NCBI GenBank assembly: GCA_964016885.1
Contig: OZ024742.1
Span: 361,584,001 to 361,648,000 of the forward strand
Length of the DNA: 64,000 bases
Reading direction: 5' to 3'
DNA from: Eledone cirrhosa
Lineage: Eukaryota
Numbering within the stretch: the first letter of the stretch is position 1; each line of letters opens with the position of its first letter. Shown here one piece after another: positions 8,173-64,000 of the stretch. The notes beneath the pieces are model-generated. The model saw only the letters and a program-made list of their open reading frames with translations, did no database searches and was not told where the DNA came from. Position numbers and translations under genes: made by a program.

Positions 8173-8233
8173 TATATACACATATAAATATATACACATA
8201 TACAAATATATACACATATACATATATATATAT

Positions 8234-8840: not shown

Positions 8841-8858
8841 TAATATATATGTATGTAC

Positions 8859-8927
<69 letters not shown>

Positions 8928-8928
<1 letters not shown>

Positions 8929-9711: not shown

Positions 9712-9970
9712 GTTAGTGTTATGGTTAGTGTTACGGTTAGTGTTACGGTTAGGGTTAGTGTTACTGTTAGGGTTAGTGTTACGGTTAGGGTTAGTGTTAC
9801 GGTTAGTGTTACGGTTAGGGTTTCGGTTAGGGTTTCGGTTAGTGTGACGGTTAGTGCGACGGTTAGTGTTACGGGTTAGTGTTACGGGTTAGTGTTACAG
9901 GTTAGTGTTACGGGTTAGTGTTACGGGTTAGGGTTAGTGTTACGGCTAGTGTTACTGATAGTTTTAGGGT
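9712..9970 (+). repeat. Degenerate telomere-like array of (TTAGTGTTACGG)n mixed with TTAGGG
   Basis: 12-13-bp units read directly; a short version lies at 14598-14650. Confidence 0.85.
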
Positions 9971-11572
9971 TAATTGAGGACAAGAGACTAGGTAAAGAAA
10001 AGAAATACTGCATTTACAAGCAATTTTTACAAACATCCACAATGACAGGACGGAGACATCGTTATGCTAGCAGGGGATTTCAAACTTGTGGCTGGGTCAG
10101 AGTTCCAACCAGACAGAGAGTGACATGGTGGTGGGACAGCACGGTAGATCGGGCCATTGGAGACTAAAGACTAGCATGGAATGCTTGGAAATTTAGTGCG
10201 AGTAGAGAAGAATATACAGCCGCTAAGAGAGAAGCTAGACGTCAGGTGTACTTAGCACGCAAGGAGGCTGCTCGACGGGAAGATCAAAGACGTGCGCTGT
10301 TCCGTACTGTGAGGCAGTGTGTCAGTGCAAATCGGGATTAAGTCTGTCCGCAATGATGCCGCTGTACTTTGTGTCATGAATGAGTGTTGATGAGTAGAAA
10401 AGAGGACAAAACTCTATTCCGTCAGGGAAATGGCCATGTTCGATATGCAGAAACGGAACTGGCATAAATTATATAAAACGTACACAAAAGATCGAGTGCG
10501 ATAGCAGGCACGCAGTGGGATAGCAGGCAAACTAACAGCATATTTTGATTATAATAAAACAAATAATAATAGTAATAATAATAATAATTGTCATTGTTCT
10601 TTTCTTCTGTGCCTTTCTTTGCCTTCTCTGTCATCTGAATAACAAAAATAAAAGAAAAGAATGTAAAACATATGTTGCCTTTACAAAGTGCTGTGATCAA
10701 AGTAGCTTTTAAGCAATTTCCTAACTAACAAACAACATCAACAAAATATATGCAAATATCTTTGAATGTCAAGTCCACCAAGAGAAAATAGTCATAATGT
10801 ACTTACAGATACAATGCTAGGGACTCGCATCAATGAGTTTTAGTAGAAAATGACTGACTGACTGTTGAGGGACAGAGGTGTGTTTTCAAATATTTATCAA
10901 TTCACAACAAAGCCTCACAAAGCTACATCATAATGCAAACTCACAACACCCTTCTTATGCAACCTCACCAAGCAACCCCACAACACAACCTCACGTTCAC
11001 AATTCACAACACTCAACAAGGCGTTCGTTATCTAGGGTTTACAGTAAGCATAGCGAGGTAAAACACACCCAGTACACTCTGTAAAGTGGTCATTAGGTTA
11101 AGATTAAACTGAAATCATACCTCCATTGTTATTGGCGTATATTTTCTCTAAAACTTAATTTCATTGCTTTCATTTCTCTTCTTTTTCTTCTATTCCATCT
11201 AAATATGAAAAAAATTATACAGGTCATTTCGTCTTATCAAGAGGTCAATTTAAAAATACACCGAGATAATACCTTAAAATAATGGTAAAAAAAGTGTTTA
11301 ATTACGAAAATCCTTTGAAATAACTTCCTCGCTCTTACTGGTCATACCTGCAAAACACAAAACGGTAGCATTAGAGTGAACAGTGATGCGCTGTAAAAGG
11401 ATTCAGTATGGTGCATATTTAGCCAATCTCTCAGACATTTAAAAAGCTTTCAGGATGTTTATCTGTGTGTGTGTCTGTGTCTGTCTGTCTATAAATATAT
11501 AATTATATATATATATATACATACATACATACATACATACATACATACATACATACATACATACATACATAC

Positions 11573-12183
11573 ATGGTGGCTGCCAACTCGTTTTCGAGTA
11601 CGGCCACTACTTTATATCCATGTAGGAGAACCCCTACCGATGCGCTGAACGAGTGTGACTTTTCAGTCCAGCCAGCGACTTGAAAACTCTAGTACAAACA
11701 CTACACTTGTGACAATGATTGACACACAGTGCTGGGCCCATGGTACCATGTGACGACAAGTGCAGAGAGATCTCCAGATATAAAGCAATGCCTGTGCCGT
11801 GAAGCTTTTATAGTGAGCAAAGGCACTGCACAAAGCCAGTCCCACTCTCTTAACCAAGATGATATTTACCAAAAAGAAGAACAAGTCAACATCATTGGAT
11901 ACCATCAGGGTTGCAGGTGTTATATCAGAGTTTTCCTTCTCCTAGAATTCTGCCTTGACAAAGGCTAAGGGGTCATCTCTCCCGGTGATTTTGGATGGCC
12001 ATTGACTCTCAAGAGCTCCTTTGCCCTTTGACAGGTTTTGTTTTTAGTCCTGCAGGATGTCCAAAGTCACCCTCCTCACCAAGAAAACTTGGTGGGGTTG
12101 CCAGTTTAGTCGCCAACGACCCGACCATGAGACAGGTTGTACTGGGATACATGTTACCAGTAGCACCAACTGGTGACCTGACA
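11573..12183 (-). mobile_element. ~600-bp non-autonomous RTE-derived retroposon, copy 2
   Basis: Same sequence as copy 1; sits inside a (TACA)n tract on both sides. Confidence 0.75.
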
Positions 12184-12356
12184 TACATACATACATACAT
12201 ACATACATACATACATACATACATACATACATACATACATACATACATACATACAGAGAGAATGAGAAAGAGATACATATATATGTATGTATGCATGTGT
12301 GTGTATATATATATACATACATACATACATACACATACCTATCTATCTATCTATCT

Positions 12357-13385
12357 AGGGCGGGTAAAATTCACGAGATCCATGGACAATATCTCTTCAG
12401 CGGTCTCTGTCCCTCATTATAGCTGCATTGTCCTAGGTCTCCAACAGACCAGCGTCTGTCCTTAGGGCATCAACATATGTTAACCTCAGTCTCCTGTGTC
12501 GCTTTTGAGCTGAATTCTTAATCCTCAGTGTATACTAGTTAATGTTCAGTGTATACTAATTAATGTTCAGGCTTTGCTCTTCTCGAACACATCATCTTCC
12601 GTATTCCCAATCTTTGCTCCCAAATACAGGCAGTCCTCAACCAATTCTAGCAGCTCCCCGCTTACATTAGTAATCTTCTCTGGCTTATTAATATTCTCTA
12701 GCAGATATTTTGTCTTGATCTCATTCATTCTCAGCCCGACACTCATCGACAGTCTCAACCTCCTGCATAAAATCCTCTGCCTCCTTCACTGTGTTTGTCA
12801 TCGAAACTATGTCGTCGGCAAATTCAGCATCCAATGTCTTTTTCCCTTTAACTCTCATGCTCTGAGCTGGTGTTACAGTAAAGCCAGAGTCTTGGTGTTT
12901 CTCCAGCGCAAGGCGCATACAACAGTCCACTATGATGATAAAAAGATAGGGGGGCCAATGTATTTCCCTGGAGCACTCCAGCCAGTATCTCAAAGAACTC
13001 CGTTATCCCATCAGGTGTAATGACTTGGGATTTGGTGTAGAGCAGCGATATCAGGTCCACTAGCTTCTTGGGGATTCCATAAACCTGTAAGAGCTTCATC
13101 AAGTAGTGACAGTCCACAGAAAGCATGACCGCAAGAAGGCAGTTTGCTCTAGCTCCCTCTAATATCCTCCTCAGCATCAGGATGTGATTGGTGGTTGATC
13201 TTCCCTCTTTGAAGCCGTTATGGTTGTCCCTTATCACGGGCTGGATCCTGTTAAGAATCATCCTGTTGACGGTCTTTGCCACAAGTCACGTCAGTGCGAT
13301 CCCTCTGTAGTTGTTGGTGTTAGAGAGATCTCCCTTCTTTGGCACTGGGACGATGTTACTGATCCTCCACTCAACTGGTGCTCCC
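12357..13385 (-). mobile_element. RT fragment of a second RTE-clade LINE family
   Basis: NIVPVPKKGDLS..NNYRGIAL, NRMILNRIQP, GVLQGNTLAP, FADDI, YLGA. Confidence 0.75.
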
Positions 13386-13764
13386 TGTGGCTATAAGCCA
13401 GAAAAGTCATAATGACCAGGCTGCTCCTTGACACTAATTAGCGTCTAACCCTAGTGCTGTTAAATACACTCTCCATATTTTTGTCAATGTCTAACAATAC
13501 CTTACCAGCACCACTCGAATAAGGTCATTATTTAACCTATAAATGGGGCCCTAACAGGTACTACTATTCCGAGCCAGAGAAAACCTGGGAGTTTTGACAA
13601 CTAAGGCGTAACTCCACATTCCCCACAGCTCCTGAACTCGAGCCTTGCCACTGGATGTAGTTTAATGTCATACCCAGGACAAATATATACATACATATAT
13701 ATATACATACACATACACATATATACATACATATATATATACATATATACAAATATATATATGC

Positions 13765-14220
13765 GTACGAAAGTGTGGTTACATGATGCCTATGCGAGAT
13801 GTGCGACGCTGCATGGTAGTGAGACATGGACAGCAACTGCAGAGGATATGCGATGGCTGGAGAGAAATGAAGCAAGCATGCTCCGTTGGATGTGCAATGT
13901 CAATGTGCGGAAACGACCAAGCATAAACGAGTTGAGAGAGAAACTGTGTTTAAGAGGGATAAGTTGTGGTGTGCAAGAGAGGACTGAGATGGTATGGACA
14001 TGTGAGGCGCATGGAGGTTGAGCGCTGGGTAAAGAAGGGAGACGCAGTAGAGGAAGACCACGAAAAACATGGGTGGAGGTGGTGAGAGCTGACTTCAGAT
14101 CGCTGAAACTCACCAAGGAGATGACGAAGGACCGTGACAAGTGAAGAGATGCTTTGCCCAAGAGGACCTGTCCCACCCTTTCAAGCAGGGAAAAGCGGAC
14201 GTAAAATGATGAACAGACGA
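13765..14220 (+). mobile_element. RTE LINE 3' end
   Basis: LHGSETW...LERNEASMLRWMC; paralog of 8928-9355. Confidence 0.85.
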
Positions 14221-14654
14221 TGATAATGATGCTCTCTATATATCTATCTCTCTATCAATCTATCAAGATATCTGTGCATCAGTCTATCTATTTACCTATA
14301 AACACCCTCCTGCACGTCTCACTCTGTCTCAGGATCACCGAGACATCACCAACAACCAACCCACGCTGTGGGAAACATTCCTCCCCGGGGCACACCCTGG
14401 TACTTCACACCATCTGTCTGTCTCGCTGCCTAACTACCGAGAAATCCGGCTTATGTGCTTGCCTAATTTGTAGGTTATTAGGCAGTTGGCAGGTTTGCGG
14501 AAGTTGGTTTTGCAAATGGTTAAAACACTTGCATCACAAAATTCAAGAAGCATCACTCCTTGTTTTATCTTTCTCATCTTTACCTAGGCCTGCATAAGTT
14601 AGTGTTACGGTTAGTGTTACGGTTAGCGTTACGGCTAGTTTTAGGGTTAATTGA

Positions 14655-16309
14655 GGGCAAGAAACTGCTGCTAGGTAAAGAAAAGAAAAGCTGCATTTAC
14701 AAGCAATTTTTACAAACAGCCACAATGACAGGACGGAGACATCGTTATGCTAGCAGGGAATTTCAATGGTCATGTTGGACAGCTCTAGGATGGTTACACT
14801 GAGGTACATGTTGGGCACACTTACGGCTTAAGAAATGAAGCAGTGAACCTTCTTGAATTTTGCGATGCAATTGCACTAACCATCTACAACACTAACTTAC
14901 ACAAATCTGCCAACCACCTAATAACCTACAAATCAGGCAAGCACATAAGCCAGATTGACTTCTTGCTAGTTAGGCAGCGGGACAGGCAGATGGTGTCAAA
15001 TACAAAGGAATACCCCGGGGAAGAATGTACCCCACAGCATAGGTTAGTCGTTAGTGATATCTCCGTAAGCAAGAGACTGAATGAGACATACAGGAAGGTG
15101 TGGAAAAAAGAAAGGTCTGGAAGCTAAAAGAGCTTTCACTAAAATACAAATTTAGGAAAGCCCTTCAATATGTGTATGATGAAAAAGAAGACGATTTAGA
15201 GTCGTACAACATAGATGATAACTGGAATTTCTTATGCGATACCTTACTGCAGGTTACTGATGAAACTTGTGGCTGGATCAGAGTTCCAACCAGACAGAGA
15301 GTGACATGGTGGTGGGACAGCACGGTAGATCGGGCCATTGGAGACTAAAGACTAGCATGGAATGCTTGCAAAATTAGTGCGAGTAGAGAAGAATATACAG
15401 CCGCTAAGAGAGAAGCTAGAGGTCAGGTGTACTTAGCACGCAAGGAGGCTGCTCGACAAGAAGATCAAAGACGCGCTGTGTTCCGTATTGCGAGGCTGTG
15501 TGTCAGTGCAAATCGAGATTAAGTTTGTCTGCTTAATGATGCCGGCGTACTTGGTTTCACGGATGGTCAGAAAAAAAAGGCCTGGAAATGTCATTAAGAG
15601 AGACTGATGAATGTAGAGACCCAATGTGAGAAAGAGAGAAATTACCCCCCCCCCCCAGTACATCCGACAGAGGGATCAGCTATTCAGATTGACGAATATA
15701 TGGTCCAAGAGGCGATTAAGGAAATGAATAATGGTAGGGCCGCTGGACCGTCAGGAATAGTTGCTGAGATGCTGCAGGCATCAGGGGACATAGGCACTAA
15801 ACTGGTTGCACACTTCATCAAATCAGGCTATATATGTCGGTTTTGTACTCAAAGACTGCTGCAGCAATATTCTCGTAAATTGCTACAAAGGTAAAGGGGA
15901 TGCTCTGGACATGAGCAATTATAGAGGAATAAAGCTGATGGATCAGGTTGTGAAAGTGGCAGAAAGGATATTAGCGCAACTAATTATAGAAAGGGTCCAA
16001 CTAGATGCGATGCAGTTTGGTTATGTGCCTGGGAAAAGTGCAACAGATACCCTCTTAGCGAGACAACTACAAGAGAGGTTCTTAGAAGCCACTATACTTA
16101 GCTTTTGTTGAAATAACTTCCTTTCTCTTACTGATCATAACTGCAAAATAGAAAACAGTAGCGTTAGAGTGAACAGTACAGTGCTGTGCAGTGCAGTGCA
16201 GTGTAGTGTAGAGTAGTGTGATTTAGTATGGTGCAGTTTAGTGGCACAGTACACTGTAAAACATTTAGCCAATCTCTCAGACATTTACAAATATTTCAAG
16301 ATATATATA

Positions 16310-27720: not shown

Positions 27721-27796
27721 GCTTGGTTATGTTAGCCATCCGCGGCCGAAACAAAGAGGAGCCCTTGCATTCTCGTCCATGAGGTGAATTTGTCTT

Positions 27797-28880
27797 TATG
27801 TATGTATATATATATATATGTATGCATGTGTGTGTATGTATGTATATGCATGTATGTGTATGTATGTGTGTGTATGTATGTATATGCATGTATGTGTATG
27901 TATGTATGTATATGCATGTATGTGTATGTATGTATGTATATGCATGTATGTGTATGTATGTATGTATATGTATGTATATGTATATATGTATGTGTATATA
28001 TGTGTATATGTATATGTATGTATGTATATATGTGTATGTATATATGTGTGTATGTATATGTGTGTATGTATATATGTGTGTATATGTGTGTATGTATGTA
28101 TATGTGTGTATGTATGTATATGTGTGTATGTATGTATATGTGTGTATGTATGTATATGTGTGTATGTATGTATATGTGTGTATGCATGTATGTGTATGTA
28201 TGTATATATATGCATGTATGTGTATGTATGTATGTATATGTATATATGTATGTGTATATATGTGTATATGTATATGTATGTATGTATATATGTGTATGTA
28301 TATATGTGTGTATGTATATGTGTATATGTGTGTACGTATGTATATGTGTGTATGTATGTATATGTGTGTATGTATATGTGTGTATGTATGTATATGTGTG
28401 TATGTATATATATATGTGTGTATGTATATGTGTGTATGTATATATATGTATGTGTATATATATATATGTATGTGTGTGTATATATGTATGTGTATATATA
28501 TATGTATGTGTATATATGTATGTGTAAATATATATGTATGTGTATATATGTATGTATGTGTATATATGTATGTATGTGTATATATGTATGTATGTGTATA
28601 TATGTATGTATGTGTATAGTTGTATGCATGTGTATATATGTATGTATGTGTATATATGTGTGTGTATGTATGTATGTATATGTATGTATGTATATGTATG
28701 TATGTATATGTATATATACTTATGTATATGTGTATATGCTTATGTATGCGTATGTATGTATATGTATATTATGTATATATATATGTATGTATGTATATGT
28801 CTGTATATGTGTATGTATATGTGTATGTATGTATGTGTGTGTATGTATGTATGTATATGTATGTGTATGTATATGTATAT
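27797..28880. repeat. Long cryptic (TATG/TG/TA)n microsatellite
   Basis: Read directly; related tracts at 34157-34340, 34944-35642, 41220-41802 and 44023-44632. Confidence 0.95.
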
Positions 28881-31839: not shown

Positions 31840-33320
31840 GGAGGTAGCAGAGCGGGGGCCAAACAACATAGGCCAGTCTCCCTGACGTCACATATCAGTA
31901 AGGTCATGGAGCGAATCGTCAGAAAGAAACTGATCACTTTCCTCGAGGAAAATGACTGCCTGACTAACACGCAGCATGGCTTTCACCCAGGAAGAAGCTG
32001 CCTTACACAGCTGCTACATCATTAAGACTGGGTACTGAAACAACTGCTTGACAGCTCACATGTGGACATGATATATCTTGACTTTGCGAAGGCCTTTGAC
32101 AAAGTCGACCACGGAATGATATGTCACAAACTACACGAACTCACCATAACTAGAAAAGTAGGTGAGTGGCTGCACGACTTCTTAAAGGAGAGAAGCCAGA
32201 CAGTCGCAGCAAACGGGGGCCCTCTCAAAGGAAATATCAATAACAAGTGGGGTTCCCCAAGGCTCCTGGTTCCTGGGACCACTACTGCTTTTGGTGGCCC
32301 TCTCAGACATACCCTCTGTAGTACATACAACAACATCCCTCACTAGCTATGCTGATGACACTAAGGTAGCACAGGCAATCAAAAACCCGGCTGATGCTGC
32401 CCTTTTACAACAAGGGCTGTATGCCATATGCAAATGGGCGGAAGACAACAACATGCAGTTTAATGCTGGCAAATTCCAAGCGCTACGCAATTCCTGCAAA
32501 CACAAATACAGTACAACACAGTTACACCGGACTAGGAGGGACCAATATCCCTGGGTAAAAATCGATATGAGACCTGGGTATAGACATGAGCGATGATGCA
32601 TCTTTTTCCTCTCACATCATGAAAGTGGCGACAATGTGCAGACGACTCGCTGGCTGGATCTTGAAGACTTTCCGGACAAGAGACCGAGACACCATGTTGA
32701 CACTATGGAGGACATTTGTCCTAAGCCGCCTGGACTATTGCTCCCAGTTGTGGTCACCGGTCACCCCATAGTGTCAAACTAACCACGGAGCTTGAGGCAA
32801 TCCAGCGAAGCTACACCAAAAGGATTGCGACTATGAAGGAGATAAGCTACTGGGCGAGGCTAAAAGAACTGAACCTCTACTCCTTGGAACGAAGACGGGA
32901 GAGATCCGCAGTGATCTACATGTGGAAAATCCTGGAGGGACTAGCACTTTGGCATTGGGAGCTGGACCAACCGCCGAACAGGACGTCATTGTGTAGTGCC
33001 AAAGATCCCGTCTTCCATATCTAGAATAAGGAGCAGATATTGCAAAAGTCTGGGGTTCAAGGACCCTCAACTCTTCAACAAGCTGCCAAGGGATCTGAGA
33101 GATCTGCATGGTGTGGATGTCTTCAAGAAACATCTCGACACCTTGCTATCCAGGATCCCAGATGAGCCCACAGCAAGGCACGAGGGAAACCTAAGGGCAG
33201 CAGCAATGAACTCCCCGTTGCACCAGTGGCCAACCAATACAGCTGGAGATTAAATGTATAGCAACAAGGGCGGTGCCCCAGCATGGCCTCAGCCGGATGG
33301 CTGGAACAGGTAAAAGAGTA
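31840..33320 (+). mobile_element. CR1-clade LINE RT to 3' end, decayed
   Basis: DMIYLDFAKAFDKVDH, YADDTK, LSRLDYCSQLWSP, RLKELNLYSLERRR. Confidence 0.8.
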
Positions 33321-33354
33321 TATATACATATTTATATACATATATATATATATA

Positions 33355-33730
33355 TACAAAGTGTTAAAACGATCAAATTTTAGTTTAGAACATTTATTTG
33401 CTGACAATTGCTTCTTCCAGAAACATGTTACTAAAATCCTATCATTCAGAACATTTAAGATACATAATTGTTATTAGTGTCAAAGGCATCATGTGGAGAA
33501 TCAGGAGTTAAAAAGATGTTCTGCTTGAAAGAACACAATTACAGGCAGCACTGGTTGGAAGTGTAATAGGTATAAGGAAAAAGCACAGGCAAAAAAATCA
33601 AAGGCATAAAAGTTATAAGCAATGTTTCAACATTCCTTATGCTCCGATGATTCCAGACTTCCCTCTGGAAGAAACAATTGTCAGCAAATAAATGTTCTAA
33701 AGTAAAATTTGATCATTTTAACACTTTGTA
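33355..33730. repeat. Head-to-head inverted duplication (67-bp arms) starting inside a hammerhead
   Basis: 33355-33421 is the reverse complement of 33664-33730 with 3 mismatches. Confidence 0.85.
33640..33686 (+). ncRNA. Minimal type I hammerhead, CCGATGA core variant
   Basis: TGCT-CCGATGA-TTCCAGActtcccTCTGGAA-GAAA-CAATTG-TC-AGCA, followed by AATAAA. Confidence 0.7.
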
Positions 33731-34340
33731 TCTCGGTTCTGTAAAACACTTGAAAACTTGCATTGAGCCTTTTGTCATACCGGTAACCTTCCAGATCATT
33801 ATATGGAAGGTCATCTTCAGAGGCTAAGAGAAAGAAAATACAGCGATCTGAAGAAAGTGAAGAAGTTCGGCATGCCCGTCTAGCTGCTAACAGAGCCCAA
33901 ACAGCTTTAGCAAGAGCACACAGTTTGAATGAAAGGGAACAAAGGACTGCTGCTACTCGAGAACAACAAATTAAGGAACAACAGCAAATAAGACGAAATG
34001 CTAATCAAGCACATCGTTTTACTGCCTGAGCAGGAGAACAAGCCACAAGTAGAATAAACTGGCTGATGGGGGCTTTTTCTGATGGGGTTATGTTAGCCAT
34101 CCGCGGCCGAAACAAAGAGGAGCCCTTGCATTCTCGTCCATGAGGTGAATTTGTCTTTATGTATGTATATATATATATATATGTATGCATGTGTATGTAT
34201 GTATATGCATGTATGTGTATGTATGTGTGTGTATGTATGTATATGCATGTATGTGTATGTATGTATGTATGTATATGCATGTATGTGTATGTATATATGT
34301 ATATGTATATATGTATATATGTATGTATATGTATATATTA

Positions 34341-40904: not shown

Positions 40905-41220
40905 ATACCCAGCCCATTGTCATTTCCCACACAGAAAAGCTTATAGCATCGTTCTTTACCCACGATGAATCTAGCAGACCCACCCCTCCACCTGGTCTCT
41001 TGAATACAACAAACATCGACCTCATTACGTTCAAGCATTTCTACAACCTCGTTAGAGCCACCCTTTAAGGTGCCTACATTCATGGTACCAACTCTGAAGT
41101 TTTGGATTGCGTTTGGAGGGTGGGAGCGGTGGGGAGCGAGGATGGGGTTATGTTAGCCATCCGCGGCCGAAACAAAGAGGAGGAGCCCTTGCATTCTCGT
41201 CCATGAGGTGGATTTGCCTT
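40905..41220 (-). mobile_element. RTE LINE 5' UTR and APE N-terminus
   Basis: TMNVGTL...[11 protein letters not shown]; near-identical to 43712-44022. Confidence 0.85.
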
Positions 41221-41802
41221 TATGTATGTATATATATATATGTATGTATGTGTGTGTATGTATGTATATGTATATATGAGTGTATATGTATATGTGTATA
41301 TATGTATGTGTATGTATGTGTATATATGTGTATATGTATATGTATGTGTGTGTATGCATATATGTGTGTGTATGTATATATATATATATGTATGTGTATG
41401 TATATGTATGTGTATATGTATGTATGTGTATGTGTGTATATGTATATATGTATGTATGTATGTATGTGTATGTGTGTATATGTATATATGTATGTATGTG
41501 TATATATGTATGTATGTGTATATATGTATGTATGTATATGTATGTATGTATATGTATATATATGTGTGTATATGTATATATACTTATGTATATGTGTATA
41601 TGCTTATGTATGTATATGTATATATATGTATGTATATGTGTATGTATGTATGTATGTGTATATATATATGTATGGTGTATATATATGTATGGTGTATGTG
41701 TATATATATATGTGTATATATATATGTATGTGTATATATATATGTATGGTGTATATATATGTATGGTGTATGTGTATATATATATGTATGTGTATATATA
41801 TA

Positions 41803-42506: not shown

Positions 42507-44022
42507 GTGGCCTTACTTATTATACTACCTTCAACTTGCACTGCTGGTCCCTCTATTGGGTCGATGTGGGGGAGACTGTCTTTCTCCCAATTATTCTCCT
42601 CATTTAGTAGCCTTTCGTAGTGACACTTCCAAGCTACCTTCTTATCAGCGTCAGTGATGGCAAGTACACCATCATCATTTAGGACACACTTCTCCCCGAC
42701 AATATCACGGTTTTCCTTGACACATTGCCTAGCAATCCTGAACACCTCACGTTTTTGGTCCTCGCGTTGTAGAACATGCTTGAACTTTCTTTCCTCTGCT
42801 TCCCTTCTTGCGAAGTACACTTGTCTCCTAGCTTCCCTCCTGCCCACTTGATAGTCTTCTCTACTTCCCCCATCCCGCCATGCTTTCCAAGCCTGCTTTT
42901 TGGCCTTGATTGACCTCTCCACCTTACTGTTCCACCACCAAGTTACTCTCCTCCTGCCTATAGGCCTGCTCCAGCCACAGGTTTCATCTGTAGCCTTCAG
43001 CAGGTTAGCTTTCAGGAATTCCCACTGTTCCTCTATATTGTACGACTCTCATTGCTCTTCCTTACTATCAAAAGCATCAAGTAATATGCTTTTAAATTTA
43101 TGACTGGCTGTGGGGTCCTTTAATTCCCAGATTTTTCTCCTGAGGATAGTCCTCTTCTGTTGTCGAATACATCTCGTCCTGACTATGAGGTCGCTAATTA
43201 TGAGTCCATGTTGAGACGTGCATTCTTCATGGGGGAGGGATTTAGTGTTTACAACAGACACTCTGTCATGTCTCCTGGTAAGGATATAATCTACCTGGCT
43301 TGTGTGTTCCCCCGATCTATAGGTGATCAAGTGATTGTCTCGTTTTTTGAAGTTAGTGTTACAGATAGCTAGGTTATTTGCGTCACAGAATTCCAGGATT
43401 CTGGAGCCTTCGTCATTTCTAGTACCAAACCCATAACCTCCATGGTTCCGTCATAGCCGTCACAATGTTGTCCAACGTGACCATTTAGGTCGCCAGCAAT
43501 AATTATATAGTCACTGTCGGTTATTTGGGAGGTAGTGAGCATCAGTGTCTCATAGAATCTGTCTTTTATAGTGCCGGGCAGTCCGGATTGGGGTACGTAC
43601 GCAGATATTACTGTCACCGTAGTTCTATTGAGGACAAGTCTTATTTTAATTATTCTGTCGTTCACTCTATTTACGTCTATTATCTTATCTGCTACCATGA
43701 TTCCTACTCCACCCAGCCCATTGTCATTTCCCACCCAGAAAAGCTTATAGCATCGTTCTTTACCCACGATGAATCTAGCAGACCCACCCCTCCACCTGGT
43801 CTCTTGAATACAACAAACATCGACCTCCTTACGTTCAAGCATTTCTACAACCTCGTTAGAGCCACCCTTTAAGGTGCCTACATTCATGGTACCAACTCTG
43901 AAGTTTTGGATTGCGTTTAGAGGGTGGGAGCGGTGGGGAGCGGGGATGGGGTTATGTTAGCCATCCGCGGCCGAAACAAAGAGGAGGAGCCCTTGCATTC
44001 TCGTCCATGAGATGGATTTGTC
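42507..44022 (-). mobile_element. RTE LINE 5' half (5' UTR, APE endonuclease, linker)
   Basis: NVGTL, CIQETRW, GGVGI, ISAYVPQ, AGDLNGHVG, SQVDYIL, ARREARRQV-like linker. Confidence 0.9.
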
Positions 44023-44198
44023 TTTATGTATGTATATATATATATGTATGTATGTATGTATGTGTGTATGTATGTATATGTATATATGCGTGTATATGTA
44101 TGTGTATATGTATGTATATGTATGTGTATGTATGTGTATATATGTGTATATGTATATGTGTGTGTATGTATATATGTGTGTATGTATATATGTGTGTG

Positions 44199-53974: not shown

Positions 53975-55470
53975 CATGTAGGAGGTAGCAGAGTGGAAGC
54001 CAAACAACATAGGCCAGTCACCCTGACGTCACATATCAGTAAGGTCATGGAGCGAATCGTCAGAAAGAAACTGATCACTTTCCTCGAGGAAAATGACTGC
54101 CTGACTAACACGCAGCATGGCTTTCACCCAGGAAAAAGCTGCCTTACACAGCTGCTACATCATTACGACTGGGTACTGAAACAACTGCTTGACAGCTCAC
54201 ATGTGGACATGATATATCTTGACTTTGCGAAGGCCTTTGACAAAGTCGACCACGGAATGATATGTCACAAACTACACGGACTCACCATAACTGGAAAAGT
54301 AGGTGAGTGGCTGCACGACTTCTTAAAGGAGAGAAGCCAGACAGTCGCAGCAAACGGGGGCCCTCTCAAAGGAAATATCAATAACAAGTGCGGTTCCCCA
54401 AGGCACAGTCCTGGGACCACTACTGTTTTTGGTGGCTCTCTCAGACATACCCTCTGTAGTACATACAACAACATCCCTCACTAGCTATGATGATGACACT
54501 AAGGTAGCACAGGCAATCAAAAACCCGGCTGACGCTGCCCTTTACAACAAGGGCTGTATGCCATATACAAATGGGCGGAAGAAAACAACATGCAGTTTAA
54601 TGCTGGCAAATTCCAAGCCCTACAATACAAACCTCCAAACAAACTTGCAAACACAAATATAGTACAACACAGTTACACCGGACCAGGAGGGACCGATATC
54701 CCTGGGTAAAAATCGATATGAGACCTGGGTATAGACATGAGCGATGATGCATCTTTTTCCTCGCACATCATGAAAGTGGCGACAATGTGCAGGCGACTCG
54801 CTGGCTGGATCTTGAAGACTTTCCGGACAAGAGACCGAGACACCATGTTGACACTATGGAGGACATTTGTCCTAAGCCGCCTGGACTACTGCTCCCAGTT
54901 GTGGTCACCCCATAGTGTCAAACTAACCACGGAGATTGAGGCAATCCAGCGAAGCTACACTAAGAGAATTGCGACTGTGAAGGAGATAAGCTACTGGGCG
55001 AGGCTAAAAGAACTGAACCTCTACTCCTTGGAACGAAGACGGGAGAGATCCGCAGTGATCTACATGTGGTAAATCCTGGAGGGACTAGCACCAAACTTTG
55101 GCATTGGGAGCTGGACCAACCGCCGAACAGGACGTCATTGTGTGGTGCCAAAGATCCCGTCTTCCATATCTAGAATAAGGAGCAAATATTGCAAAAGTCT
55201 GGGGTTCAAGGACCCTCAACTCTTCAACAAGCTGCCAAGGGATCTGAGAGATCTGCATGGTGTGGATGTCTTCAAGAAACATCTCGACACTTTGCTATCC
55301 AGGATCCCAGATGAGCCCACAGAAAGGCACGAGGGAAACCTAAGGGCAGCAGCAATGAACTCCCTGTTGCACCAGTGGCCAACCAATACAGGCTGGGGAT
55401 AAAATGTGTAGCAACAAGGGCGGTGCCCCAGCATGGCCTCAGCCGAATGGCTGGAACAGGTAAAAGAGTA
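53975..55470 (+). mobile_element. CR1-clade LINE RT to 3' end, decayed
   Basis: HRPVTLTSHISKVMERI, QHGF..GKSCLTQL, LDFAKAFDKV; paralog of 31840-33320. Confidence 0.8.
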
Positions 55471-55479: not shown

Positions 55480-57890
55480 AGTCCAAACTCATTCATGGTC
55501 CATGTGGAGTCATCAATCCAGCCTCAGCCTGCATGAAAGATAAAAAATACAGCAAACATCATCCTAGAGCTTTTATTCGGGAAACTCGGACTGACAATAA
55601 TGGATACCCCCTTTATCGTAGGCGTAGACCAGAACATGGAGGCAATACTGCAAGCCTGACAGTTCGAGGAGAGGAGCTGACCATAAACAATCAGTGGGTC
55701 GTCCTACACAAGAAATTGTTGTGTAAACTTTTAAAATATCAACAAGGGCAGGGACATGGATACCTTTATTACTGACAAAGAACTCAATGATGGTGGGCTG
55801 GATGAGGTGAAACGGCATCAAACAGGTCGATACATCTCCAGCAATGAAGCTATCTGGCGAATCTTTGGATTTGATATCCACCAACGCCACCCAACAGTGG
55901 TCAACCTCGCAGTCCATCTGGAAAATGGACAGAGAGTGTACTTCACTGATATCACTGCTCATCAGTTGGCACAAGCATCACATGACACTAACTGCTTTCT
56001 TTAAACTCTGCCAGAATGATGAATTTGCTCGATCCCTCCTATATGCTGAAGTCCCAACAAACTACACCTGGACCAATTGCAAGGTCTGCATTCGAAGAAA
56101 GCAGGGTTATTTAGTGGAAGGTCATGAAGGCAAGTCAAAGGATGTTGTTGGGTGTGTTGACAATGTCCATCCCAACAACAGAGAATGTTTTTATTTATGG
56201 CTACTTCTGCATACTGTTCGAGGACCAACATCATTAGAGGATCTTAGGTGCTTCAGAGGAAGGGAGTGCGCAACATACCAAGAAGCATGTAAACAGCATG
56301 GACTCCTGCATGACAATGGACACTGGAAAAAGTGCCTAGAAGAAGCAGCAATCACTCAAGTAGCCAGTGAAATAAGACAATTATTTGCTATTATGCTCAC
56401 AGCATGTGGAATTTGATGAAGTTCATCTACTCTGGCTGGAGTACAAAAACAATATGCCAGACAACTATCTACACCTAGCTCGAAGACATCATGGCAATAT
56501 GTATATGGAATATACCCCCAAGATTTACAATCAAGCTCTCTGTGACCTGTCCCATCGAGTTCAGGCAATGAATAGCACATTAGCTAACTGCAGGATGCCA
56601 GAGCCAGATGAAGAAATGGAGGTAGCACAAGACATTTTTTCAGGAGACAAACTACGATATTCAAGCATTGCGTAAGTTTGTGGATTAAAATGAACCTCGA
56701 TTGATGGATGACCAGAAATACGCCTACCTCAACATCATCGAAAACATTCAAAATGACAGGGGAGGACTTTTCTTCATCGATGCTCCTGCTGGCACAGGCA
56801 AGACATTCCTCATAAACCTCCTGCTTGCAAAAGTTCGCCAAAAGCCACATATTGCCCTTGCTGTGGCCTCAACTGGCATTGCATCAACACTTCTGGATGG
56901 GAGAAGAACTGCACACTCCATGTTTAAGCTGCCCATAGATCTCACACAGCATGAACAATCTTTTTGCAACATCAAGAAGAACTCACCCAAGGGCAAGCTT
57001 CTGCAAACATGCAAGATGATAATTTGGGATGAAACTACTATGAGCCATAAAGGAGAAATTGAAGCTTTGGACCGGACGATAAGGGATCTGAGAGAAAATA
57101 GTTGCATAATGGGAGGAGTGACAATGGTTCTTGCTGGTGATTCAGACAAACTCTGCCTGTAATTCTTCGAGGGACTCGAGCTGATCAGGTCAATGCCTGT
57201 CTGAAAACATCCTATGTCTGACCCCACTTTCAACTGCTGAACCTTACAACCAACATGCGAATGCACTTAACTGGTGACGAAGGTGTCAGTGAGTTTGCCA
57301 TCCAACTACTTAAATTGGGAAATGGACTTCTTGAAAAGGACTCCAATGACCATATTCAGTTGTCATTTGGCCATATCATTGACACAGAACATGAACTGAT
57401 TGCCAGAGTGTTTCCAAACATTCAGACCAGGCGATGTGATCCGAAATGGCTCTGTGAACGAGCAATCTTAGCACCTAAAAATGTTGCTGTGAAATAAATC
57501 AACAGAAGGCTGCTGGAGATGTTACCGGGAGAGAAAATATGCTACAAATCAGTTGACACAATCACTTCTCAAGACCAGGTTGTAAACTATCCAACTGAAT
57601 TTAGGGTTGAATCTGGCAGATCCTGCCTTTTCACACGCTCAACTCTATGTTGGCACAACAAGGGCTGGAACCCTGATTGTCTCTTCATTGTGGCACCACA
57701 ATGCAAAACCAAGAATGTTGTTTAACCAGAGGCTTTGGAATGCGCAATGTCGTAATACCTCATTCAATGACAATACACACAGATCCTAATTCCTTAGTCA
57801 TGTAGTTTGCAAGGAATTCTGAAGCCGCAAATTTACTGCATGGTGTTACTTTGAAAGAATATGCAGACATTCCCGGGTAACTCTGCTATA
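55480..57890 (+). mobile_element. Helitron Rep-helicase pseudogene
   Basis: GYPLYRRR, NQWVV, GRYISSNEAIWRIF, LAVHLENGQ, Walker A DAPAGTGKT, IIWDE, LAGD, ERAILAPKN, FSHAQLYV; Helitron-type 3' hairpin also at 58407-58435. Confidence 0.9.
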
Positions 57891-58974
57891 TGAAGTAGTA
57901 TAAGTGAGGACTTTGTTGGGTAGAAATAGCAGCCAAATTTCCTTCAAATTCCACCTTTCCCCGAATTACAGAAATGAGTAAGTAAACGCTTCATTCGATC
58001 ATAAACCAATGATAAATTTATTTTCTTATTTTATTTATGGTTTTTTAAAATAGTCTTTACATGTTGTTTGAATTTCAGAGGTTCAGATTGAGCAAAGAAA
58101 AAAAAAGAAAGAAAGAAAGAAAAGGATAAATAAAAAAAAATCTAAATGTATTTTTTGCGTCAAGCCCTTTTCACTGACAACATACCCAATGATTCATCTA
58201 TGAGTAAAGTATTATATATGCTGACTGTAATAGGGAGCAGTATTCAAAAAATCACCACTGGAAAAAACTAATATTTTTATCTAGATGATTTATTTGACCA
58301 AACGGCAATAAATATTCTGCTTTACTTTCGTTAAAATTCAGCAATTATATTTGAATGGTCAAATATTTTGTAATGTGTGCCAAATATATTGTAACTTTCA
58401 TAAAATACCCGGGTATCACCGGGTAGCTCAGCTAAAATAAAAATGAAATTGTTATTGTTGTTATTGCAATTTATATATTTATACTACTACTGCTGAGTTG
58501 TTACAACGTCTGATAATATTGGAGTTTTGGAGAGGAGATAGCTTGGATTTTATTTACCTATTGACACCCACGGACACACACACATATACACGCATACGCA
58601 TACACGGACACACAGACACACACACATACATGCAGCCACACACACAGACACACACACACATTCACAGACACACATACACACAGACAGGCAGACACACACA
58701 CACACAGACACACATATGAGCTTAACGGAACCAAAAAAGACACATATACGACACTCGCATTCACTGGATGCAAATTCCGTAACAACTGCTTGTGATGTAT
58801 ATATATATATATATGGGAGGAGGTTATAGTTCACTTGAAGCATTGTGTAATGAGGTATAAACGTTAGAATATGTGTAATAAGGCCAAGACAATGCAGATA
58901 TGGACATAGAAAAAGAATGCAATAGTGAGAGATATTGATGAGGATTCGTCTTTCACCTTGAATTTATTTAAATG

Positions 58975-59012
58975 TCCTTAATTTTCGAGATAATATCTCT
59001 TCTTCGGAGGGA
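58975..59012 (-). ncRNA. Atypical minimal hammerhead candidate in the PLE 3' UTR
   Basis: CCT-CCGAAGA-aGAGATattATCTC-GAAA-AT-TA-AGG, then AATAAA; short stems and one extra A. Confidence 0.4.
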
Positions 59013-59385
59013 AGTAAAAGTCTCAGACCAGCGTCTAAATTTCCAATGAAGCCATGCTGACCGGAAATAGTATAGAGTTCTAACTTTAATATCAAAGAAT
59101 TAAAATTAGGTGGGTAAAGAGTAGTCTCCCTTTAAGAGGGGTTTGTTTATGTTTTTGTTGTGTTTTTTAAATTTTATATGCGTGTCTGTATATGTGTGTG
59201 GGAGAAAGCATGAAGGTGTAGGTATGTGTGTGTGTGAGTGTGGGAAGATAGGTCTAATCGTAAAAGTGGGGGGTAGGTGTTATCTGGTGTTAGAACTGGT
59301 TTTGTGTGTGTATGTGTGAGAGAGAATAAGTGGAGGTGTGTGCGTGCGTGTGTGTGGGGTGTGTAAAGTGGGGCTAGAGGCCCTA

Positions 59386-61326
59386 TCAGGTTATAAATTG
59401 GGTGTTGAGCTCTAGTCTATTATTGATTGGTGGATGTGTTCTATCTATAATGAGTGCTTCCTTGATTCTAAGATTACCGAGGTTTCTTTCTTTAGTTTCT
59501 ATCCTAACTGTTATGTTTTTATCAGTGTTTTTGCATTTAACTAGGTGTTTCTTAAATGAGGAAGCGTTAGTATTGAGGTGTTCTTTTATTCTTATGTGGA
59601 GTGGTCTGGTGGTGCTACCTACGTAGAAGTTGTTGCATTTGTCACACTCTAGTCTGTAAACTACGTAAGCCTGGTGGCATAGGTCTGTGTCGTTGATGGG
59701 GCAGTTGGCTAGTCTGCAGCAGTTGTCATGTCTGGTGGAGTGTCTCTTAGCTAGCCGTCCACGCAAAGAAGGACCCGAATGGGCCAGTTGAATATCCAGA
59801 CCTTCTCGTCTGATGGCTCTGCGGATGGCTGTTGTTGTTTCTTCACTGAAGTGTGGGAGCTTCAGGAAGCAAGTGTTAGTGCCTCGGGTGTGGTGTCCTC
59901 TGTTCTTTCTGGCACGGTTTGTGGTGGATGTCGTGTATCCGTTCAGTTTGAGTACTTCCAGGAAATGTGTGGTGTGTGTGTCTCGGTCTCTGGCGTCGGT
60001 GCATTTGTTCTTGATACGTGCCAGTTCGTTCTTTATGTATCCGAACTTGGCACCGAGTGGGAGGGCCGATCTGAAATGTACGAACAGGTCCCTGCTGGCG
60101 GATTTTTTATAGAAGCAGGTGTGGATGTTGCCTTCCTCTGTTACCCTGAGTTGGAAGTCCAGCAGGGATAGGGATCCGCGGTCATCGGGGTGTTCTATGC
60201 TGAACTTTATACTGGCGTCCATGCTGGAGAATGTTGTGTATATTTTCTCTGCCTCTTCACGGGATGATGTAAGGATGAGTATGTCATCTACATATCGGGT
60301 GAAGAAGGCATGGGAATGGCAGGTGTTGAGGGCTCGGCATTCTAGCTGGTTCATGTAAGTGATGGCCAGCAGGCCAGAGAGGCTGGATCCCATGGGTAAT
60401 CCTGTTGTCTGTCTGTATGTGTGGTGGTGGAAGGTGAAGTACGTGTTGTCTACCGTGAAGGACAAAAGTTGGTGTATGTCCGTCGGGTGGAGGCCGTAGC
60501 AGTGGATGTTCTCTGCGACCACGCAGTCCGTCAATAAATCGACAGCTGGGTGAGCGGGGACTGTAGTGTAGAGGGAGACAACGTCGAGGCTAAAAGCGTA
60601 TTTATTAAGTTTAAGTTGTTCTGGCTGGAGTTGGTGTAATCTACGTATAACTTCGTCGGAGCTACTGACATGTCCGGGGAAGGTGGAGAGTAGAGGCTTG
60701 AGGACCTGGGAGAGAAGCCAGGAAATTTTGTATAGGGGTCCTTCTATGCTAGAGACGATGGGTCTTATATGCGTCTTAGTGCTATTCTTGTGGGTCTTGA
60801 TGAGGTGGTAGAAAGTGGGCAGTCTGCTATTTCTAGTGGTGTAGTTGAGTTTAATTTTATTCGGGAGTTGTCTTCTCCTACAGATATCGAACCAAATGGA
60901 GTTGGTCTGTTTTTCGATTTGGGCTGCGGTCATGTCCGGGATCACTGTGTACAGTTCACTGTCGCTTAGGTGTTCGAAGGCTAGGTTATTGTATGTGGCT
61001 TGAGAGATGACGCAGAACTCTTTACCTTTGTCGGATGGTAAGTAAATAAGTTCCTTATTCCGTAGGTTCTTCAGGGCGAGTTGTTGTGTCCTGGAGAGGT
61101 TAGGGGCCACCTTCTTCTGTTTCCGTAAGATGTTAAATACGGAATGTTTTAGTCTCGAGAGTTTATCTTCCAGCTCGCGGTTGGCGGGCGGTGGATAGAG
61201 TGGGCGATCTAGTTGGTATATCGGGAATCTGTATACATACATATATGTATACAGACGTACAGTAGCATGCACATATATATATATATATACATATATATAT
61301 ACATATGCATACAGGTACACATACAT
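59386..61326 (-). CDS. Penelope-like element RT + GIY-YIG endonuclease (Neptune/Nematis-type Cys-rich linker); 5'-truncated, first ~33 aa come from the fused repeat
   Basis: Uninterrupted frame with PSDKG, LIKTHK..IRPIVS, SLDVVSLYT, GLPMGSSLS, RYVDD, LSLLD, CRLANC..C, VVYRLECDKCNNFYVGST.R.L..R..EH, LRIKEALII. Confidence 0.92.
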   Translation of the reverse strand: MYVYLYAYVYIYVYIYIYVHATVRLYTYMYVYRFPIYQLDRPLYPPPANRELEDKLSRLKHSVFNILRKQKKVAPNLSRTQQLALKNLRNKELIYLPSDKGKEFCVISQATYNNLAFEHLSDSELYTVIPDMTAAQIEKQTNSIWFDICRRRQLPNKIKLNYTTRNSRLPTFYHLIKTHKNSTKTHIRPIVSSIEGPLYKISWLLSQVLKPLLSTFPGHVSSSDEVIRRLHQLQPEQLKLNKYAFSLDVVSLYTTVPAHPAVDLLTDCVVAENIHCYGLHPTDIHQLLSFTVDNTYFTFHHHTYRQTTGLPMGSSLSGLLAITYMNQLECRALNTCHSHAFFTRYVDDILILTSSREEAEKIYTTFSSMDASIKFSIEHPDDRGSLSLLDFQLRVTEEGNIHTCFYKKSASRDLFVHFRSALPLGAKFGYIKNELARIKNKCTDARDRDTHTTHFLEVLKLNGYTTSTTNRARKNRGHHTRGTNTCFLKLPHFSEETTTAIRRAIRREGLDIQLAHSGPSLRGRLAKRHSTRHDNCCRLANCPINDTDLCHQAYVVYRLECDKCNNFYVGSTTRPLHIRIKEHLNTNASSFKKHLVKCKNTDKNITVRIETKERNLGNLRIKEALIIDRTHPPINNRLELNTQFIT

Positions 61327-61451
61327 ATATGCACGTATCAGTTTAGCGGCGCTAACGTCGCTTTATTCGTTTGTAAACAAACTGAACAGCCTGAATTTAT
61401 GCCATACGGTGTTAAGGCAACCACGTCACCTTTTTGTTCAACACTGACACA
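61231..61451 (-). repeat. Inverted partial copy of the 466-bp unit, fused to the PLE ORF
   Basis: Reverse complement of about 61731-61950 with one clear substitution. Confidence 0.9.
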
Positions 61452-61683
61452 TACTGTACGTCTGTATACATATATGTATGTACGTATACATGCATACTTA
61501 CATTTAAGTAAGTGCCATACTAAGAGTGAGAAATGAAATTTCGTTTTCATTTTGTTTCAATTTATCGTTTTCGGTATGCCTGACCGATTTAACTCACTCA
61601 ATATGCAAATTAGGCTGCTCAGCCGTTAATTTTCATAAGGAAAGTATATACTTTCGAACGTTCAACTATCTGGCAGATGGGTA

Positions 61684-61728
61684 AACGGTGCTGATGATAG
61701 CTAACAAGCTTGAAACTAGTACATCGTT
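61684..61728 (+). ncRNA. Minimal type I hammerhead ribozyme, copy 1
   Basis: AACGGTG-CTGATGA-tAGCTaacaAGCTt-GAAA-CTAG-TA-CATCGTT; predicted cleavage after GUA (A61721). Confidence 0.9.
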
Positions 61729-62149
61729 CCTGTGTCAGTGTTGAACAAAAAGGTGACGTGGTTGCCTTAACACCGTATGGCATAAATTCAGGCTGTTCAG
61801 TTTGTTTACAAACGAACAAAGCGACGTTAGCGCCGCTAAACTGATACGTGCATATATGTATGTGTACCTGTATGCATATGTATATATATATGTATATATA
61901 TATATATATGTGCATGCTACTGTACGTCTGTATACATATATGTATGTACGTATACATGCATACTTACATTTAAGTAAGTGCCATACTAAGAGTGAGAAAT
62001 GAAATTTCGTTTTCATTTTGTTTCAATTTATTGTTTTCGGTATGCCTGACCGATTTAACTCACTCAATATGCAAATTAGGCTGCTCAGCCGTTAATTTTC
62101 ATAAGGAAAGTATATACTTTCGAACGTTCAACTATCTGGCAGATGGGTA

Positions 62150-62194
62150 AACGGTGCTGATGATAGCTAACAAGCTTGAAACTAGTACATCGTT
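62150..62194 (+). ncRNA. Minimal type I hammerhead ribozyme, copy 2
   Basis: Identical to copy 1, 466 nt downstream. Confidence 0.9.
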
Positions 62195-62428
62195 CCTGTG
62201 TCAGTGTTGAACAAAAAGGTGACGTGGTTGCCTTAACACCGTATGGCATAAATTCAGGCTGTTCAGTTTGTTTACAAACGAACAAAGCGACGTTAGCGCC
62301 GCTAAACTGATACGTGCATATATGTATGTGTACCTGTATGCATATGTATATATATATGTATATATATATATATGTGCATGCTACTGTACGTCTGTATACA
62401 TATATGTATGTACGTATACATGCATACT

Positions 62429-62472
<44 letters not shown>

Positions 62473-62899
62473 AGGAGACAGATAAAATAGACATTATATT
62501 GTCTCTTCAACCTTTAGATGGTCAATGGTTTCGAGAATTTAACTAAAATAAAAAATTAAATTAAATATAATTAAATAAGTAGGGGTTCTCTTTTTCAAAG
62601 AGATATAGAAGGAACATTAAAAAAGATTAATACGACTCCTTATGTGTATCTCACAGTCCAGGATTGACCCTCAGTCCTCGATTCAACCCCCAGACCACAA
62701 TTGAACACCGAAACCAGGATCTCACCATCTCTGGTACTTCCCACTAAGCTACCGAGACTGATACAAAGATTTACTGAAAATTAATATTTATAAACCTACT
62801 TTCAAAATACAATTAATTACTTTAAATTAAATTAAAATTAAATGAAATAAATCGACATTGGGGTTCTAAACTTTAATATATATATATATATATATATAG

Positions 62900-64000
62900 G
62901 TAGAATCAGTAAGTACATATTAGATCGTATTATCCCTCAAGTTAAGGCTAAGGTAAATATTAAATTATGGGGTAATACTCAACAGGCAATAAGTTGGTTC
63001 AATAACATTAGTGACAAAAACAAATCTTCTTTTATTCAATTCGATATAGATGAATACTATTCCTCTATTTCACCTGAAACTCTGCATAAGGCCCTCTCAT
63101 TCGCTAAGGTTAACTCGGACCTCACAAACGAGGATATTAATATTATACTTGAAGCTAGACGCACAGTAGTCCATTTTGAAAATAGTTATTGGGTCCGCAG
63201 GGATAGACCATCGGAATTTGACATTACGATGGGTTCTAATGATTCGGCGGAAGTTACGGATTTGGTTTGAATCTATATAGCTCACAGACTCCAGACGAAT
63301 TTATTGACCTCCACGGCGGAATCTACCGTGATGATGCACTCCTATTAGTCAAAAATATGAACAAACAAAACCTAGAAAGGCGACGTAAAAACATTAGGAA
63401 ACTTTTCTTAGAACTAGGACTTAGTATTACCTTCGAACACAATCTTAAAGTGGTCAATTTCTTGGTTGTCACCTTCAACCTTAATAACGGTAATATAAAG
63501 CCATTTCACAAACTTAATGAAAATCTCAAATACGTTAATGTAAGATCGAACCATCCACATTCCATTATTAAATCTATCCCTAAAAATATATCCATAAGGA
63601 TCTCCCGACTATCGTCTAATTTGCAGACCTTCAACGAGCATGCTGAGTATTATAACGACGCACTTAGAAAAGCTGGTTACTGCGAGAAAATAGAATATCT
63701 AGAAGATAACCACATAGGTACTATGAATAAATCACATCTAAGTCGAACTAGTATTGCACCACACAGACACATTAATAGGCATAATAATAGGTGCAAACCT
63801 ACAAATAGAGTTAGACGTAGAGAGTACATATGGTATAACCCCGTGTACAATATTTCTATTAGCACTAAGATTATCTCACAATTCTATACACTGATCAATA
63901 AACACTTTACAATTTCACATAAATACTATAAAATCTTAAACTCGCGCACCATTAGACTCTCATACTCCACTGCACCTAACATAGAACAACTAATTAAAAA
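62900..64000 (+). pseudogene. Second, unrelated Penelope-like RT (YRDD type), decayed, runs off the window
   Basis: Manual translation: FIQFDIDEYYSSI, FDITMGSNDSAEVTDLV*, GGIYRDDAL, VVNFL, SNHP, WYNP, LSYST. Confidence 0.75.

Follow-up and report, generated by a model that had tools for sequence, protein, structure and literature searches.

Two identical copies of a hammerhead ribozyme motif lie 466 nt apart near one end of the window, the 64,000-nt stretch of DNA analysed here. The locus bears on two questions: which enzyme mobilises animal retrozymes, and whether a circular RNA is the template. Directly visible are the twin motifs, the tandem repeat that contains them, an inverted arm of the same unit, (TA)n borders, and an adjoining Penelope-like ORF whose own end is unrelated to the unit (Table 1). 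The reading that we consider probable, taken as a whole, is that this is a copy of a metazoan non-LTR retrozyme with two back-to-back arms, inserted at (TA)n by a Penelope-like enzyme acting in trans.

Much of this has precedent. Dimer cleavage, unit-length RNA, and circles have been published for the retrozyme/hammerhead class (PMC7229834, PMC4209133), the circle was proposed as the template in 2014 (PMC4209133) and in 2020 (PMC7229834), and a Penelope origin of retrozymes was proposed in 2026 (bioRxiv 10.64898/2026.07.22.740005). With class, dimer mechanism, and circles already in print, the locus is a further member and not surprising. The earlier note on this DNA, which predicted a dimer-cleaved RNA able to circularise, was right about the motifs and the tandem; its idea is not new, and it missed both the inverted arm and the Penelope-like ORF. 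What the locus offers is a young, nearly unmutated unit beside an uninterrupted frame for a Penelope-like reverse transcriptase (RT) and endonuclease, and a single locus cannot settle how mobilisation occurs.

Table 1. Positions of the features of the composite insertion (monomer positions, in nt, count from the first predicted cut)
Feature	Position	Strand	Remark
Left border of composite insertion, (TA)n	58798..58814	.	likely target microsatellite
3' untranslated end of Penelope-like element	58815..59385	-	no similarity to 466-nt unit
Hammerhead-like motif of Penelope-like element, min-HHR type	58976..59010	-	predicted cut after 58979
Penelope-like ORF, RT and C-terminal GIY-YIG, 615 codons, uninterrupted	59386..61233	-	
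Left arm, inverted 218-nt copy of unit	61234..61451	-	monomer nt 10-227
Right arm, 2.11 tandem units	61452..62433	+	from monomer nt 197 to nt 246-248
Octamer ATGCAAAT	61603..61610, again at 62069	+	candidate promoter element
Hammerhead type I, copy A	61684..61728	+	predicted cut after A61721
Predicted 466-nt monomer	61722..62187	+	GC 0.36, highly self-paired
Hammerhead type I, copy B	62150..62194	+	predicted cut after A62187
Right outer end of array, (TA)n	62434..62469	.	likely target and primer

The two 45-nt motifs are identical, as are the 106-nt stretches that surround them. In copy A, stem I consists of 7 bp (61684-61690 paired with 61722-61728), and its predicted extension reaches about 61660 and 61747. 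The core sequences CUGAUGA and GAAA start at 61691 and 61712, respectively. Stem II begins with a U-U mismatch, followed by 4 bp and an AACA loop, and the sequence ACUAGU at 61715-61720 provides helix III, a single base pair capped by a palindromic tetraloop. The predicted cut site is GUA in both copies, with a spacing of 466 nt between the cuts. A strict descriptor search of the 64-kb window returned two sites only, both within the array, and none of 100 dinucleotide shuffles of the 64 kb yielded the motif. All coordinates that the earlier note gave for its twin identical hammerheads were correct. At gathering level Rfam reports no match for the array hammerheads; in E-value mode, Hammerhead_HH9 appears below threshold at both sites (18.5 bits against a cut-off of 52, E 0.61). 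The top rows in that mode were microRNA models placed on a TA/TG hairpin of the unit; they fall far below their cut-offs and were set aside as composition artefacts.

The array motif has the characters of a type I hammerhead, that is, CUGANGA, GAAA, and NUH sequences and three helices, open at helix I. It lacks the G10.1-C11.1 pair at the base of helix II, where the U-U mismatch stands instead. This is still compatible with type I membership, because the active axolotl ribozyme HHR_Amex2 has the same defect (PMC7229834). A helix I of 6-7 bp, a helix II of 4 bp, and a helix III of 1 bp with a palindromic tetraloop describe both the canonical metazoan type I (PMC4209133) and axolotl HHR_Amex1 (PMC7229834). 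Newt satellite 2 is likewise a tandem repeat with a type I hammerhead, a 1-bp helix III, and a palindromic tetraloop; its ribozyme is active as a dimer, and its unit is about 330 bp long, compared to 466 nt here (PMC7229834). The earlier note called the twin ribozymes minimal, a term that does not apply in its published sense. The min-HHR of Penelope elements is defined by a helix II of 7-8 bp, an unpaired base before G10.1-C11.1, a helix I of 4-5 bp, and no helix III loop (PMC4209133); with a 4-bp helix II, a 7-bp helix I, and a tetraloop, the array motif is a canonical type I hammerhead with a weak helix III.

Whether such a ribozyme could cut was addressed by folding models. The supposition that a lone copy is too weak to fold agrees with the predicted energies, -2.0 kcal/mol for the active fold versus -9.5 for an inactive hairpin that buries the core. 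Two strands paired as a double hammerhead reach -20.8 kcal/mol, compared to -4.0 for two lone active folds. The ribozyme packs three palindromes into positions 61698-61720 (UAGCUA, CAAGCUUG, and ACUAGU), and two copies therefore have several pairing registers, only one of which is active. An inactive dimer formed through the second palindrome, CAAGCUUG, is predicted at -21.7 kcal/mol, 0.9 more stable than the double hammerhead. In a tight dimer in cis, the share of the double hammerhead is 1.5e-3 versus 7e-9 for the lone fold, a gain of about 2e5. With the extended stem I included, the shares are 1.3e-5 and 5.5e-7; in the nascent transcript the gain is gone (1e-7 versus 1.4e-7), and in the whole array the order is reversed (2.4e-10 versus 5.6e-7). 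With flanking sequence, each copy is predicted to be locked in its own inactive hairpin. In these models, which contain no tertiary contacts, the active double fold is thus feasible and never dominant. A dependence of the array hammerhead on dimers is plausible on this basis; that dimers cleave efficiently, as had been claimed, is unsupported, given the more stable inactive dimer, the double-fold shares of 1.3e-5 to 2.4e-10, and the missing G10.1-C11.1 pair. Published ribozymes span a similar range of outcomes: axolotl HHR_Amex1 and HHR_Amex2 cleave better as dimers and give circles (PMC7229834), the min-HHRs of Penelope elements cleave poorly even as dimers (PMC4209133), and one of nine predicted dimers from Xenopus cleaved (bioRxiv 10.64898/2026.07.22.740005).

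In the linear monomer, the two ends are closed by stem I with a predicted share of 0.38. In the circular monomer the lone active fold has a share of 5.6e-7, so that the lone ribozyme is predicted to be inactive in the circle. Self-pairing is thus predicted to block the ribozyme here, while most metazoan circles are predicted to leave theirs free (PMC7229834).

The array was delimited by Tandem Repeats Finder (61452-62433, period 466, 2.1 copies, 99% matches), and its 982 nt correspond to 2.11 units. The tandem units, 99.2-99.6% alike, differ by one C/T substitution and one 2-nt microsatellite indel. That indel falls past the second cut site, and the two predicted cuts therefore delimit a monomer of exactly 466 nt, as the earlier note had stated. 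Over all copies, the differences amount to two C/T substitutions and a single 2-nt microsatellite indel; with so little divergence between copies, the insertion is judged to be young. The monomer includes a long TA/TG hairpin at about 61840-61957. The fold of the circular monomer has a z-score of -9.8 (60 shuffles), a value inflated by that hairpin; for 61975-62312, which excludes it, the z-score is -4.7 (100 shuffles). Stop-to-stop frames of the array do not exceed 142 aa and run through the microsatellite. The octamer ATGCAAAT, which we liken to snRNA-type promoter elements, is a weak candidate, as it occurs seven times on the + strand of the window. An octamer-type promoter element is also associated with newt satellite 2.

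At the sequence level the repeat has the characters of a metazoan non-LTR retrozyme. At least two units, each a few hundred bases long and bearing one type I hammerhead, follow one another; the repeat has no protein-coding capacity and no LTR; its GC content is below 50%; and its monomer is highly self-paired. The retrozymes of the axolotl (Rtz331 and Rtz353), mussel, and coral share the noncoding tandem units with one type I hammerhead each, the GC content below 50%, the strong self-pairing, and a weak palindromic helix III that needs a dimer (PMC7229834). The U-U at the base of stem II also occurs in axolotl HHR_Amex2 (PMC7229834). The unit of 466 nt lies just above the 150-450 bp given in one account (PMC7229834) and inside the 51-972 bp given in another (bioRxiv 10.64898/2026.07.22.740005). 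Dimer-sized arrays and a proposed mobilisation by Penelope-like elements are further points in common (PMC7229834, bioRxiv 10.64898/2026.07.22.740005).

The left arm, an inverted second copy of part of the unit, differs from 61731-61948 by one mismatch. It adjoins the start of the array directly, begins 9 nt past the predicted cut, and abuts the truncated ORF with its outer end. The outer ends of the two arms lie 19-21 nt apart in the unit, a proximity expected by chance in about 9% of cases on a 466-nt unit. The inner end of the right arm falls on the unpaired base that immediately follows a 22-bp hairpin (there are eight such sites in the linear fold), and the inner end of the left arm lies 1 nt from another helix foot; these two ends, for which the helix-foot criterion was picked after the fact, fit stalling of RT on a folded RNA, as modelled. 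The left arm end also lies 9 nt from the cut, for which chance gives about 2%, again judged after the fact. These figures describe one locus with four ends. The whole block, ORF and both arms, is bordered by (TA)n on both sides. With (TA)n or the ORF at every border, no target-site duplication is readable; in retrozymes that have one, it is longer than 4 bp.

This anatomy resembles that of the pseudo-LTRs (pLTRs) of EN+ Penelope elements, which include partial tandems, an inverted 5'-truncated adjacent copy, an end offset, and (TA)n targets (PMC8557442, PMC3846280). The spacing of the outer ends is reminiscent of Penelope-like elements, which prime at paired sites and have a "tail" (PMC11167929, PMC8557442), although at 19-21 nt it is shorter than the published tail of 30-40 bp (PMC8557442). 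In the portions of the retrozyme reports available to us (PMC7229834, bioRxiv 10.64898/2026.07.22.740005), an inverted second arm with paired outer ends is not described.

A chain of five steps would account for the locus. By analogy with the published biology of the family (PMC7229834), tandem arrays would be transcribed into multimers, two copies of the ribozyme would pair through ACUAGU into a double hammerhead, and slow cutting would release a 466-nt monomer whose ends could be held together by stem I. A host ligase would then close part of the monomer into circles; RtcB is the ligase in published in vitro tests (PMC7229834). From the anatomy of the locus we infer the remaining steps. A Penelope-like enzyme would nick AT-rich DNA, and from the two sides of the break two cDNAs would be primed internally, about 20 nt apart, at monomer nt 227 and nt 246-248. 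One of these cDNAs would extend for 2.1 turns, for which a circle is the simplest template; the other would end 9 nt before reaching the cut end, and both would then be joined head-to-head. The predicted priming sites (nt 227 and nt 246-248) and stop sites (nt 10 and nt 197) are suited to the existing in vitro Penelope assay.

Two intact cut sites fall within the right arm. Unless this stretch of DNA was duplicated afterwards, the template of the arm was therefore a circle or an uncut multimer. With efficient cutting the template would have to be circular; with slow cutting it would not. The left arm, by stopping 9 nt from the cut, is consistent with a linear RNA that had been cut. The earlier note took the mid-unit ends and the approximately 2.1 turns as signs of reverse transcription round a circle. 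The ends do lie within the unit (start at nt 197, end at nt 246-248), but they are not diagnostic of a circle, because internal priming, as reported for a Penelope enzyme (PMC11167929), together with 5' truncation would also yield them from a linear multimer.

The strongest alternative keeps the element and the enzyme but dispenses with the circle. It holds that the ribozyme is sluggish: a larger array would have been transcribed into a long linear multimer that stayed uncut and served as the template, with internal priming and truncation at the 5' end. The Penelope enzyme of Anolis primes internally and prefers unprocessed RNA, with no reads ending at the cut site in the data reported (PMC11167929), and multimeric RNAs are also present in axolotl tissues (PMC7229834). 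Inactive local hairpins dominate every longer context that was modelled here, and the distance of 9 nt between the end of the left arm and the cut suits the end of a linear template. However, an end beside the cut site also implies some cutting, the unit folds compactly with the ends of the monomer paired, and coral, mussel, and axolotl, those examined in vivo, all yielded circles (PMC7229834). On this evidence we consider a linear template rather unlikely.

Which Penelope-like element might supply the enzyme in the favoured reading, a retrozyme mobilised in trans, is a separate matter. The ORF beside the left arm matches RVT_1 (E 5.8e-16) and GIY-YIG (E 9e-5) and has a DKG motif, a Cys linker, and CCHH in the endonuclease. 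It thus shows the characters of an EN+ Penelope-like element: a single ORF, an RT, a C-terminal GIY-YIG, DKG, and CCHH. A conserved C-x4-C with a further Cys is present in all 11 aligned rows, which is not the full CX2-5CxxC of the Neptune/Nematis linker. The closest named protein matches among the relatives listed are from Octopus bimaculoides (61-63%), which, together with the wealth of microsatellites in the window, suggests that the host is probably a cephalopod. When the ORF is compared with contigs from sequencing runs, 30 of the 40 differences listed (85 more exist) fall on third codon positions, the bias expected of a lineage under selection.

The ORF is truncated by about 230 residues at its 5' side. 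Among the best 120 of 167 relatives, 54 of the 55 that are at least 800 aa long have 192-428 residues upstream of the junction, and the remaining one aligned from query residue 385 only. ORF and left arm are joined without a spacer (61233/61234), with the arm in sense orientation. The possibility that the left arm is the natural 5' region of the ORF, with an intron ending at the junction, was considered and rejected, given the roughly 230 additional residues that relatives have upstream.

Two origins are conceivable for the junction: nesting of one insertion at the edge of a (TA)n target common to both, or a jump between templates within a single event. In the latter case, the Penelope-like enzyme would have copied its own mRNA, jumped at about codon 230 to the priming zone of the retrozyme RNA, and run to the cut end, while a second enzyme, starting on the opposite side of the break, went twice round the circle. 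We regard this single event as distinctly unlikely. If true, it would name an autonomous partner of the retrozyme that shares no sequence with it, and cut-linear and circular templates would have served in the same insertion. The unit shares no sequence with the ends of the adjoining ORF and so does not point to a mobilising element, which weighs against the favoured reading. A literature search of titles and the starts of abstracts, with subscription journals mostly outside its coverage, returned no chimeric or template-switched Penelope-retrozyme insertion and no paper on a cephalopod retrozyme. The word "ribozyme" does not occur in the available text of an octopus repeat annotation (PMC13282606).

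A very unlikely explanation is that the array is a run of pLTRs of an autonomous Penelope-like element, either that of the adjoining ORF or another beyond the window. Such elements typically have pLTRs with hammerheads, in tandem and inverted (PMC8557442, PMC4209133), their hammerhead has been proposed to act as a dimer, and the circle was proposed as their template in 2014 (PMC4209133). In Xenopus, homology of retrozymes to pLTRs is frequent: of 57 families, 24 had a match among known elements, and 21 of 22 matches were Penelope-like elements (bioRxiv 10.64898/2026.07.22.740005). At this locus, too, the left arm is joined directly and in sense to a Penelope-like ORF. Against this, that ORF is cut about 230 residues into the protein, and its own 3' end is unrelated to the unit: BLAST of one against the other gave no match, and local alignments scored 23 and 32, with shuffle maxima of 32 and 34. 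A pLTR upstream of the ORF should repeat the element's own 3' end, and this repeat does not. Judged by these sequences, the array is not a pLTR of the adjoining ORF, though a parent ORF elsewhere in the genome would be compatible with them. In addition, its ribozyme is of the canonical retrozyme type, not the min-HHR of Penelope pLTRs (PMC4209133).

The 3' end of the ORF has a different hammerhead-like motif of its own, which may be assigned to the min-HHR type by comparison with PMC4209133. This motif (58976-59010) has an unpaired A before G10.1-C11.1, a 5-bp stem II, a palindromic AAUU, and a 3-bp stem I, and its core bears one change, a C at position 4. It was found with a relaxed core and a stem I of 3 bp, and the shuffle controls covered other settings. 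In run X2, 23 contigs match the 3' end of the ORF only up to 59018 and then diverge. On the minus strand this point lies just upstream of the hammerhead-like motif, and the ribozyme-bearing 3' end would appear to be common to other families.

The abundance of the unit in sequencing runs also bears on a pLTR origin. In run X2 the unit far exceeds the ORF in summed contig depth, with 732,502 over 61368-61451, a non-repetitive bin of the unit, compared to 7,745-14,699 over the four 5'-most bins of the ORF and 86,507-163,995 over its 3' end. Summed contig depth is not a copy number, and the contrast comes from one run. Four runs were compared on the ORF and left arm, and only X2 covers nearly all of this region; X4 covers mostly the ORF, and X23 consists of nine partial reads. 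The contrast was not seen in the other runs, as X1 had no match and X4 was without depth over most of the unit part, although both are listed among the runs that contain the sequence. Half or more of the words of the unit occur in 17 of the 24 listed runs, and the listed runs include no RNA run. The depths give a hint that the unit may be a separate family, more abundant than the ORF.

It is also highly improbable that a shorter insertion, of about 1.1 units, grew afterwards at the DNA level through tandem duplication or unequal crossing over, which would make the 2.1 turns uninformative about the template; an arm of 1.1 units would have terminal direct repeats of about 50 nt able to recombine, units 99.2-99.6% alike fit either route, and Li et al. 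favour local amplification by unequal crossover (bioRxiv 10.64898/2026.07.22.740005), but this account leaves the inverted arm, the paired outer ends, and the (TA)n borders unexplained, has little time available in a young insertion, and, because 1.1 units already span one intact cut site, still needs an uncut or re-ligated RNA.

Microsatellites are abundant in the window, which also contains several other elements. A second (TA)n run at 62876-62897 is followed by a 5'-truncated, frameshifted Penelope-like RT at 62900-64000 (+), which continues past the end of the window. The best relative of this remnant is P0121 (42% over 95% of the second frame), whose C-terminal GIY-YIG is accompanied by a CxCX5C linker, and the remnant is therefore regarded as Hydra-like; the same endonuclease and linker led us to reject Naiad as its identity. 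Between this (TA)n and the one that ends the array lies an AT-rich stretch of about 400 nt (62470-62875), unique in the window and unrelated to the unit. It may be an inverted arm of the Hydra-like element, and the descriptor search found no hammerhead in it.

A small two-armed insertion with 68-nt inverted ends (95.6%) is present at 33354-33731, beside (TA)n at 33319-33356. Its hammerhead-like motif (about 33640-33686) has a 7-bp stem II and an 8-nt palindromic helix III; the core has C at position 4, the same as in the motif at 59007, and this shared change may be a natural variant or decay. In the relaxed-core hammerhead search, 0 of 100 shuffles gave a match.

Positions 55500-57725 (+) contain a broken Helitron-like element with a match to PIF1 helicase (E 6e-44), and the frames upstream of the helicase presumably correspond to the Helitron replication protein. 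Fragments of RT at 54722-55402 (+), 29644, and 51794, including two near-identical stretches with RT motifs, are taken here to be of LINE type. Finally, an element of 75-83 nt is present in four copies that are 94-100% alike (27725-27799, 34081-34160, 41141-41223, and 43945-44027), each running directly into a long TATG-type microsatellite.
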